IMG/VR virus record: IMGVR_UViG_2541047437_000023
DNA from: a virus
Taxonomy: Duplodnaviria; Heunggongvirae; Uroviricota; Caudoviricetes
Reading direction: 5' to 3' (one strand)
DNA length: 5,118 nucleotides
The notes beneath the pieces are model-generated. The model ran no database searches, was not told the origin of the DNA, and saw only the letters and a list, made by a program, of their open reading frames with translations. The position numbers were made by a program, and so were the translations under genes. Below are positions 198-1,256 of this stretch, piece after piece. Each line of letters begins with the position of its first letter. Position 1 is the stretch's first letter.

Positions 198-1256
198 ATG
201 CTTAATACTGTAAAAATATCCAGTTGTGAGTTAATCAACGCCGACTGCCTGGAATTTATGCGGTCGTTACCCGAAAATTCTGTTGACCTGATAGTCACGG
301 ACCCGCCGTACTTCAAAGTGAAACCCGAGGGCTGGGATAACCAGTGGGCGGGTGATGAAGATTACCTGAAGTGGCTGGACCAGTGTCTTGCGCAGTTCTG
401 GCGGGTGCTGAAACCTGCCGGAAGTCTTTACCTGTTCTGTGGCCATCGTCTGGCATCTGACACCGAAATCATGATGCGTGAGCGGTTTAACGTGCTGAAC
501 CATATCATCTGGGCAAAGCCGTCCGGACGCTGGAACGGGTGCAACAAGGAAAGCCTGCGGGCGTATTTCCCCGCCACAGAGCGCATTCTGTTCGCAGAGC
601 ATTATCAGGGGCCGTATCGTCCGAAAGATGCCGGGTATGAGGCGAAGGGTAGGACACTGAAACAGCATGTGATGGCCCCGCTGATTGCTTACTTTCGTGA
701 TGCGCGCGCTGTCCTGGGGATAACGGCAAAACAGATTGCAGATGCCACAGGAAAGAAAAACATGGTGTCGCACTGGTTCAGTGCCGGTCAGTGGCAGCTG
801 CCGAACGAAAGCGATTATCTGAAATTACAGGCACTGTTTGCCCGGGTGGCAGAAGAGAAGCATCAGCGGGGTGAACTGGAAAAGCCCCACCACCAGCTGG
901 TGGATACGTATGCCTCTCTGAACCGACAGTATGCGGAGCTGCAGAGTGAATATAAGCATCTGCGGCGGTATTTCGGTGTGACGGTGCAGGTGCCGTACAC
1001 CGATGTGTGGACGTATAAACCGGTGCAGTACTATCCAGGGAAACATCCGTGCGAAAAACCGGCAGAAATGTTGCAGCAGATAATCAGCGCAAGCAGTCGT
1101 CCGGGAGACCTGGTTGCAGATTTCTTCATGGGGTCGGGGTCGACAGTGAAAGCAGCGATGGCGCTGGGACGTCGTGCAACTGGCGTTGAACTGGAGACTG
1201 AACGTTTTGAGCAGACGGTGCGGGAAGTACAGGATTTAATCATTCGTAACGGATGA
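198..1256 (+). CDS. Orphan DNA methyltransferase, beta-class amino-MTase (N6-adenine or N4-cytosine; N6_N4_Mtase-like fold)
   Basis: 352-aa ORF. Motif IV DPPY at nt 300-311 (aa 35-38) near the N-terminus; HPxEKP motif (HPCEKP, nt 1044-1061) and motif I FxGxG (FFMGSGST, nt 1122-1145) near the C-terminus. The order IV...I defines the beta permutation. A ~240-aa insert between the motifs is a probable target-recognition region. The in-frame stop at 192-194 fixes the start at ATG 198, though its SD is weak. No restriction endonuclease gene is adjacent. Confidence 0.9.
   Translation: MLNTVKISSCELINADCLEFMRSLPENSVDLIVTDPPYFKVKPEGWDNQWAGDEDYLKWLDQCLAQFWRVLKPAGSLYLFCGHRLASDTEIMMRERFNVLNHIIWAKPSGRWNGCNKESLRAYFPATERILFAEHYQGPYRPKDAGYEAKGRTLKQHVMAPLIAYFRDARAVLGITAKQIADATGKKNMVSHWFSAGQWQLPNESDYLKLQALFARVAEEKHQRGELEKPHHQLVDTYASLNRQYAELQSEYKHLRRYFGVTVQVPYTDVWTYKPVQYYPGKHPCEKPAEMLQQIISASSRPGDLVADFFMGSGSTVKAAMALGRRATGVELETERFEQTVREVQDLIIRNG

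Follow-up and report, generated by a model that had tools for sequence, protein, structure and literature searches.

A prophage relative of the adenine methyltransferase M.EcoGII with a conserved structured leader in the late region of an Escherichia coli O157:H7 prophage

The DNA analysed here, a stretch of 5,118 bases referred to as the window, carries a methyltransferase (MTase) gene whose product is, judged from its sequence, a close relative of M.EcoGII, an enzyme that is already known and very common in prophages. The most probable reading, to which we assign a probability of about 0.8, is that the prophage encodes an enzyme of the M.EcoGII family which stays off in the lysogen, is made late through Q and would methylate phage DNA against restriction. 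This reading draws on the family assignment, gene order, terminators, leader structure and purifying selection described below, and takes the non-specific activity, the silence in lysogens and the toxicity from the literature on M.EcoGII; for the MTase of this prophage we infer the Q dependence, the anti-restriction benefit and a regulatory role of the leader. The MTase finding itself is ordinary, and the regulatory module upstream of the gene is the more useful result.

At 99.9% identity, the window matches the chromosome of the E. coli O157:H7 strain PV15-279 and represents the late region of a lambdoid prophage of that serotype, one that lacks stx. Gene order on the + strand was Q, a small open reading frame (ORF), a hairpin followed by T6, the MTase, ileZ, argO, sRNAs, nanS-p and holin (Table 1), and in the 99.9% identical genome it ran from the Q-like DUF1133 gene through the small ORF, MTase, tRNAs, nanS-p and holin to lysozyme. 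The Q-to-S regions of many Stx2a, Stx2c and Stx1a phages were 84–89% identical to the window and hold the same gene at the same position (Q, methylase, ileZ/arg tRNAs, (stx), nanS-p, S), whereas this prophage has neither stx nor the argN copy of the Stx phages and carries STnc100 and AgvB directly after its tRNAs.

Table 1. Mapped features of the window and of the sequence just upstream of it (window positions, except where L001, from the 99.9% identical genome, is named).
Feature	Position	Strand	Basis and remarks
Q-like antiterminator	just 5' of window	+	DUF1133, PF06530, phrog_753
Hairpin+T7	L001 7704-7725		outside window, ~100 nt after Q stop
65-aa ORF	3' end at 1..47	+	starts 150 nt before window; WP_000917750.1, L001 7850-8047
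Hairpin GCCTTCA-GTCC-TGAAGGC, then T6	34..57 (hairpin 34-51)	+	7 bp, loop 4; pattern scan, MFE fold
Structured 5' leader of MTase gene, ~130 nt	67..197	+	alignment, covariation
Leader helix P2	75-86 with 94-105	+	well supported
Leader helix P3	107-116 with 126-135	+	well supported
Leader helix P4	147-153 with 159-165	+	two covarying pairs
Leader, possible closing helix	70-74 with 171-175, or 140-143 with 171-174, or 69-74 with 110-115	+	
M.EcoGII-family beta-class N6-adenine methyltransferase	198..1256	+	ATG to TGA, 352 aa
Catalytic motif IV DPPY, aa 35-38	300..311	+	invariant in family alignment A4
Central region, aa 160-259: counterpart of the four-helix HTH recognition domain (160-237) and charged two-helix linker modelled for M.EcoGII	675..974	+	alignment to M.EcoGII model
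HPCEKP (aa 283-288) and AdoMet-binding motif I FMGSGS (aa 310-315)	1044..1142	+	
tRNA, anticodon CAT, ileZ type	1297..1372	+	ARAGORN: Met; RefSeq: tRNA-Ile
tRNA-Arg, anticodon TCT, argO type	1453..1529	+	75/77 identical to argO
sRNA genes STnc100 and AgvB	~1639-1908	STnc100 +, AgvB -	directly after tRNAs, position of stx in Stx phages
nanS-p-type sialate esterase	2053-3990	+	
DUF1378, DUF826, then holin S	holin at 4703	+	

The MTase protein was 100% identical to the RefSeq entry 'DNA-methyltransferase' WP_000935548.1 and matched the Pfam family PF01555 (N6_N4_Mtase; E 2.4e-43, 149.1 bits against a cut-off of 26.7) over aa 29–340, corresponding to profile positions 1–219 of 221. Its motifs follow the order IV, central region, then I, which defines the beta class, with 244 residues from DPPY to HPCEKP, and the segment containing HPCEKP and FMGSGS aligned to the M.BceJIV-type, CcrM, MboIIA and RsrI chains. 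No restriction endonuclease was annotated within ±8 kb of the gene in the 99.9% identical genome, where RusA and a terminase-associated HNH were the only nuclease-like genes, and the MTase is thus an orphan. Solved beta-class MTases aligned with aa 8–115 and 269–343 only (E 1e-24 to 1e-14), and the gap between these blocks spans approximately 154 residues in the MTase as against approximately 58 in M.BceJIV-type chains, which places about 95 extra residues in the middle of the protein. An earlier note on this DNA, made from the letters alone, had described an orphan beta-class DNA amino-methyltransferase with about 240 residues between its motifs and a large central insert, and all three descriptions are borne out. 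The solved 8urk/9c3u enzyme, which we take to be M.BceJIV, together with M.RsrI, CcrM and M.MboIIA, aligns with the MTase in the catalytic halves and shares its motif order; in contrast, the recognition regions of these solved enzymes are unrelated to that of the MTase, about 95 residues shorter and sequence-specific.

The closest characterised homologue, which the earlier note had proposed to seek together with its recognition site, proved to be M.EcoGII, a non-specific adenine methylase. The two proteins were identical at 325 of 350 positions over their full length (~93%, with 2 gap positions), an approximate value because the M.EcoGII reference was machine-read from the PDF of Table S1 of the SUPREM paper (PMC11551740) and contains a few apparent reading errors, which probably account for some of the mismatches and the 2 gaps. 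Both are prophage-borne orphans of similar size (349 aa for M.EcoGII) that have the DPPY, TRD, FxGxG order in common and probably share a central HTH domain with a charged linker, and they differ by approximately 25 substitutions (about 5 in the recognition domain and about 7 in the linker) and by a C-terminus that is 3 residues longer in this MTase. Murray et al. (2018, PMC5778455) characterised M.EcoGII, which is encoded in a prophage of E. coli O104:H4 C227-11, as an N6-adenine methyltransferase without sequence specificity, and M.EcoGI is its paralogue in the prophages of that strain. It methylates adenine in every context, in DNA and also in RNA (PMC5778455, PMC7544214), is not expressed in the lysogen (PMC5778455) and, according to the literature on this homologue, is toxic when expressed. 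Murray et al. also reported a very similar MTase in phage 1720a-02 (PMC5778455), and this phage matched window positions 1–4926. As M.EcoGII is non-specific, a 'recognition site' is probably the wrong expectation for the MTase described here.

The published AlphaFold2 model of M.EcoGII consists of a Rossmann domain (aa 1–134 and 260–349), a four-helix HTH recognition domain (aa 160–237) and a long charged linker that is thought to confer non-specific binding (PMC11551740). The central region of our MTase aligned residue for residue with this modelled region, differing at about 12 of 100 positions, so that the view of the earlier note, in which an uncharacterised region sets target specificity, does not stand. 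A single-sequence AlphaFold2 model of the MTase was all-helical over aa 145–259 with block-mean pLDDT of approximately 50–80 over aa 160–250, while its overall mean pLDDT of 39.9 did not suffice for a fold search. Against PDB sequences, a profile built from the central region returned only coiled-coil noise (E of at least 0.05), and a Pfam search with the central region alone gave nothing significant. In the architecture suggested by these comparisons, a Rossmann-fold catalytic domain would be split by the inserted HTH recognition domain and charged linker, and in M.EcoGII this split arrangement may be what leads to sequence-independent adenine methylation of DNA and, more weakly, of RNA.

Alternatively, the enzyme could be a sequence-specific adenine MTase with a new recognition site set by its central region, as might be argued from the positions in this region that differ from M.EcoGII and from the site-specific M.PflMI, which falls within the same sequence cluster as M.EcoGII and has a similar predicted overall fold (PMC11551740). 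However, M.PflMI is without the charged linker (PMC11551740) that is retained here, the recognition domain is approximately 94% identical to that of the non-specific enzyme, and the family-wide conserved residues ATGKKNMxSHWF..SQWQLP are unchanged, which together make a specific enzyme improbable.

The MTase gene is very common. A scan of 5,426 complete E. coli genomes detected it in 1,916 of them (at least 80% coverage) with up to 7 copies per genome, 346 records carried it at 99% identity or more, the intact ORF was identical in hundreds of genomes, and relatives with 63–80% protein identity occurred across Enterobacterales. Values of dN/dS for the MTase ranged from 0.09 to 0.12, and the family is under strong purifying selection (dN/dS ~0.1). 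An Stx2a phage paper lists a '352-aa putative DNA methylase downstream of Q', with 50-aa remnants elsewhere (PMC10462455), and the 933W-type Stx phages were found to retain only the stretch equivalent to window 1146–1300, which includes the last ~110 nt of the coding sequence (1146–1256).

The state of the prophage itself has to be considered alongside this conservation. In the 99.9% identical genome, IS1203 splits the lysozyme gene, another IS1203 copy flanks the replication region and several neighbouring genes of the prophage are pseudogenes, and the prophage looks defective. Given the IS1203 insertions, the MTase may never act on packaged DNA in this prophage. These features could be interpreted as evidence that the gene is a functionless passenger here, a relic that has stayed intact in a decaying element without ever being expressed, as could the continued propagation of 933W-type phages that have lost nearly all of it. 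We regard this as very unlikely, since the ORF is intact and identical in so many genomes, the family is strongly constrained, and the leader and small ORF are likewise intact in this prophage.

Late expression of the M.EcoGII-type enzyme is suggested by its neighbourhood. A Q-family gene lies immediately upstream on the MTase strand and the holin gene lies downstream on the same strand. The Q-like protein matched DUF1133 with 367 bits, PF06530 (Phage_antitermQ) with 35.2 bits against a cut-off of 26, and phrog_753 ('anti-termination protein Q-like'); it had no match among PDB sequences, which included those of solved Q structures. Two hairpin and T-run elements were identified between Q and the MTase. 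The first, with T7 and close to Q, is conserved, with stem changes that compensate between phages, and the second encloses the small-ORF stop codon. As the earlier note had described, no other ORF precedes the MTase downstream of this hairpin with T6; counted from Q, the MTase is the second ORF, since the 65-aa ORF lies between them. Four other phages whose Q genes differ also show the order Q, small ORF, MTase, with either lysis genes or tRNAs and stx coming next after the MTase.

A scan for the sigma-70 consensus from Q to the MTase detected no promoter, and PR' was consequently not located for this Q type. In prophage Sp5 of strain Sakai the late promoter start site and tR' have been mapped experimentally, 258 nt apart (PMC7547250). 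When this mapping was transferred with an assumed offset of 142 nt between genome versions, the start site fell approximately 22 nt after the Q stop, with the first hairpin and its T7 then lying inside the short transcript, and tR' fell directly upstream of a 3' remnant of the MTase gene. Because the Sp5 tR' adjoins this remnant, the hairpin at 34–51 would be equivalent to tR' by position, and the Sp5 comparison favours its identification as a putative tR' on this positional basis. Related phages share the PR'-proximal sequence of Sp5, and the region differs for the Q type of this prophage.

The MTase would thus head the late operon between the Q-like antiterminator and the lysis genes, preceded by two hairpin and T-run elements and by a structured leader. 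By analogy with M.EcoGII, the gene would be silent in the lysogen, a silence that the toxicity of the enzyme would make necessary. On induction, Q-modified RNA polymerase would read through and the MTase would be made late, the replicating phage DNA would become heavily methylated, and the methylated progeny DNA would resist the adenine-sensitive restriction systems of the next host. A switch-on after induction with self-protection against restriction is the accepted reading for M.EcoGII (PMC5778455, PMC12707154). The same proposal in the earlier note agrees with this literature and with the gene order found here; late Q-dependent expression with an anti-restriction role is plausible and is the best-supported mechanism, one that leans on gene order and on the homologue. 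We know of no direct demonstration that an M.EcoGII-type enzyme protects native phage DNA.

A conserved and structured leader lies between the small ORF and the MTase start codon. In phages with different upstream modules the shared sequence begins at window position 67, and 57 distinct loci, ranging from Escherichia to Yersinia, Providencia, a Klebsiella siphovirus and Vibrio phage VHML, show this conserved leader. Leaders were 53–80% identical to that of the window in comparison to 25–47% identity at the 4-fold degenerate sites of the gene, indicating that the leader is still conserved where synonymous sites are saturated. A covariance model (R1) built from a hand-set structure yielded 59 hits, all on the + (MTase) strand and directly upstream of an MTase gene. 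In alignments of 55–59 leaders from Enterobacterales and Vibrio phage VHML, 89.2% of cells at the proposed pairs were paired compared to 27–41% in slid controls, 15 of 33 pairs showed both-sided changes (70 cells) and 0 of 500 shuffles reached any measure, values that are biased towards the proposed structure by the fitting of the covariation alignment to the covariance model. In the raw sequences, P2 stems were wholly different yet complementary in E. coli (GGCTGGTGGGTG/CACCCACCAGCC), the Klebsiella phage (CTACAGCATG/CATGCTGTAG) and Yersinia (GGCAGAAGAGTG/CACTGCTTCTGCC). Three candidate closing helices (P1, P2x and P4x) are indistinguishable and all fit the data, because the segments concerned are nearly invariant. 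G-U pairs are numerous, in keeping with an RNA on the + strand.

A nearly invariant GATC occupies window positions 193–196, 2 nt ahead of the ATG, and no Shine-Dalgarno sequence was found before the MTase start codon. Rfam 15 contained no family for the leader, the best match being P26 on the opposite strand with 24 bits against a threshold of 36, with noise only on the + strand. Searches of paper text with the exact leader sequence, and for EcOnc sRNAs near methylase genes, returned nothing relevant; for the leader this is not proof that it is undescribed, and on present evidence the leader and the small upstream ORF look undescribed.

The 65-aa ORF is a member of phrog_331 (E 1.9e-37) and gave weak winged-helix hits (TrmB, MarR and HTH_24), all under the Pfam cut-offs. 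It begins MLKQQDMTETA; conserved features of this ORF are a start of the form M-x-x-Q-Q-D-M-T-E and a CQLILTQLVMAGL core. In 35 of the 57 MTase loci, which belong to different genera, a homologous ORF of 62–67 aa has its end approximately 20 nt ahead of the leader. The position of the hairpin over the small-ORF stop codon is conserved across the family, with stems that are different but complementary; a T run of at least 5 follows it in only 15 of 57 loci, and the hairpin is thus not a canonical terminator in most relatives. Loci without the small ORF have a canonical terminator immediately before the leader. The co-occurrence of small ORF, hairpin, leader and MTase across loci indicates that the unit moves as a module.

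A tentative interpretation, to which we give somewhat less than even odds, is that the leader is an undescribed cis-regulatory RNA that, in conjunction with the small winged-helix-like protein and the stop-codon hairpin, may hold the presumably toxic and promiscuous MTase off until late infection in a manner resembling com-mom. Under this interpretation the small protein, or the MTase itself, would bind the leader and thereby permit translation despite the missing Shine-Dalgarno sequence, and the small ORF, hairpin, leader and MTase would travel jointly among phages that differ in their Q genes and would also reach non-lambdoid phages.

The small protein also bears on a different possibility, namely that the main natural substrate is RNA (rRNA or mRNA) and that the winged-helix-like upstream protein may direct the MTase to it. 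Activity of M.EcoGII on RNA in vitro and the recurrence of the small ORF beside the MTase are compatible with this, and the MT-A70 enzyme of Stx phage PA8 needs a small protein, PNB-2, to target 16S rRNA. M.EcoGII is, however, ~90-fold faster on DNA than on RNA (V0 of 11.1 versus 0.12; Table S3, PMC11551740), the PA8 enzyme belongs to a different family and lies elsewhere in its phage, and a hairpin/terminator separates the small ORF from the MTase; we consider a main role on RNA to be about as improbable as a functionless passenger. With regard to named enzymes, the Stx-phage rRNA methyltransferase of Gong et al. (PMC10810198) was considered as an identity for the MTase and rejected, being an MT-A70 protein at the opposite end of the phage. 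The MT-A70 enzymes (M.EcoPA8orf6770P / M.EcoGV) were not matched, the Pfam family here being PF01555 and the PA8 gene lying at ~2.4 kb.

Comparison with the com-mom system of phage Mu offers a functional analogy for the proposed control of the M.EcoGII-type gene. As background, in part from PMC12707154, Mom is a toxic promiscuous DNA modifier whose gene is silent in the lysogen and expressed late; upstream of mom lie a small ORF (Com, 62 aa) and a structured leader through which translation is controlled. The 65-aa ORF, the covarying leader and the absence of a Shine-Dalgarno sequence may represent a parallel arrangement. There is, in contrast, no sequence relationship between the two modules. 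Mom does not belong to the AdoMet methyltransferases, and Com has a zinc finger where the small ORF described here looks winged-helix-like.

Another leader-bearing relative comes from Vibrio phage VHML, where the putative adenine methyltransferase ORF17 was 48% identical to the MTase over its full length and model R1 recognised a leader upstream of it with 75.6 bits. ORF17 differs in its myovirus context, without a Q/lysis neighbourhood, and in that no homologue of the small ORF was detected.

Codon usage in the MTase gene was compared with the adjacent phage tRNAs, which had been proposed to serve several AUA and AGG codons in it. The tRNA with anticodon CAT was identical at 75 of 76 positions to ileZ2 of Sakai prophage Sp5; once modified with lysidine, a tRNA of this type reads AUA, and 4 of the 14 Ile codons in the MTase are AUA, in agreement with the first part of this proposal. 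The second part does not hold, as the 23 Arg codons include 1 AGG and 0 AGA. An Arg tRNA with a UCU anticodon mainly reads AGA, and AGG is read weakly.

In summary, many E. coli prophages, including O157:H7 prophages that lack stx, carry an intact, presumably non-specific adenine methyltransferase, and these intact copies bear on how phages escape restriction and on how the methylomes of induced cultures are read. M.EcoGII is a widely used reagent that is toxic in vivo, and the covarying leader together with the co-travelling small protein provides a testable handle on how phages control an enzyme of this type. The leader could represent a new class of phage cis-regulatory RNA.

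The methyltransferase gene, an M.EcoGII-family N6-adenine enzyme, is preceded by a leader that was kept in 57 distinct loci from Enterobacterales and Vibrio phage VHML, and its hairpins showed strong covariation in an alignment fitted to a hand-set structure model. Conservation of this leader greatly exceeded that of synonymous sites of the methyltransferase gene. The leader matched no family in Rfam and contains no Shine-Dalgarno sequence, and a GATC (Dam) site at window 193-196, 2 nt upstream of the methyltransferase ATG, is nearly invariant family-wide. Homologues of the 65-aa ORF on its 5' side lie beside the methyltransferase in 35 of the 57 loci, where the ORF always stops some 20 nt short of the leader and its stop codon falls within a hairpin. 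Winged-helix matches to this ORF were weak, and its product may be a regulator or partner of the methyltransferase.

Features of the window and related prophage regions (L001, PV15-279 chromosome region; L002, Sakai Sp5 region, onto which the mapped tR' was placed with an assumed 142-nt offset)
Feature	Coordinates	Strand	Remarks
Second hairpin + T7	L001 7704-7725		~280 nt before window, ~100 nt 3' of Q stop codon
65-aa ORF (phrog_331)	L001 7850 to window 47 (window part 1-47)		adjoins methyltransferase leader on 5' side
Methyltransferase leader (~130 nt)	window 67-197		conserved, covarying hairpins
STnc100 sRNA family	window 1639-1847	+	full-length match, 173 bits
AgvB	window 1849-1908	-	56.6 bits vs gathering score 56
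nanS-p-like protein gene	window 2053-3990		DUF1737 + SASA esterase domain + DUF6645
Methyltransferase remnant, Sakai Sp5	L002 2615-2762		between tR' and ileZ; 148-nt alignment = window 1146-1292

The T run (window 52-57) 3' of the hairpin at the ORF's stop codon is T6 in the window and T5 in PV15-279. This change falls within the terminator U-tract, and across 5.1 kb the two sequences differ in length nowhere else. The second hairpin is also kept between phages, with compensating stem changes, and its homologue in Sakai Sp5 lies within the StxS transcript rather than at its end.

The prophage is probably defective. The lysozyme gene is split by IS1203, which also lies at the border of the replication region (copies at L001 1-1154 and 13317-15163). 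A frameshift is present in a fimbrial gene. The adhesin gene paa is also carried by this prophage.

No stx genes were found between the tRNAs and nanS-p (window 1530-2052), argN (tRNA-Arg TCG) is absent as well, and the slot held by stx genes in Stx phages is filled by matches to STnc100 and to AgvB, an anti-GcvB sponge RNA of EHEC prophages. The start of the following nanS-p-like gene is an ATG at 2053 in RefSeq versus an upstream TTG at 1996 in a mechanical ORF list. Elsewhere the window is 84-89% identical to Stx2 phages and collinear with them, so the prophage is a stx-less relative.

In 933W-type Stx2a phages nothing is left of the methyltransferase coding sequence but its final ~110 nt, still followed by the spacer on the 3' side (together corresponding to window 1146-1300), and this remnant lies directly 3' of the experimentally mapped tR' (PMC7547250). 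Because only the 3' remnant is left, 933W-type phages have lost the methyltransferase enzyme by deletion.
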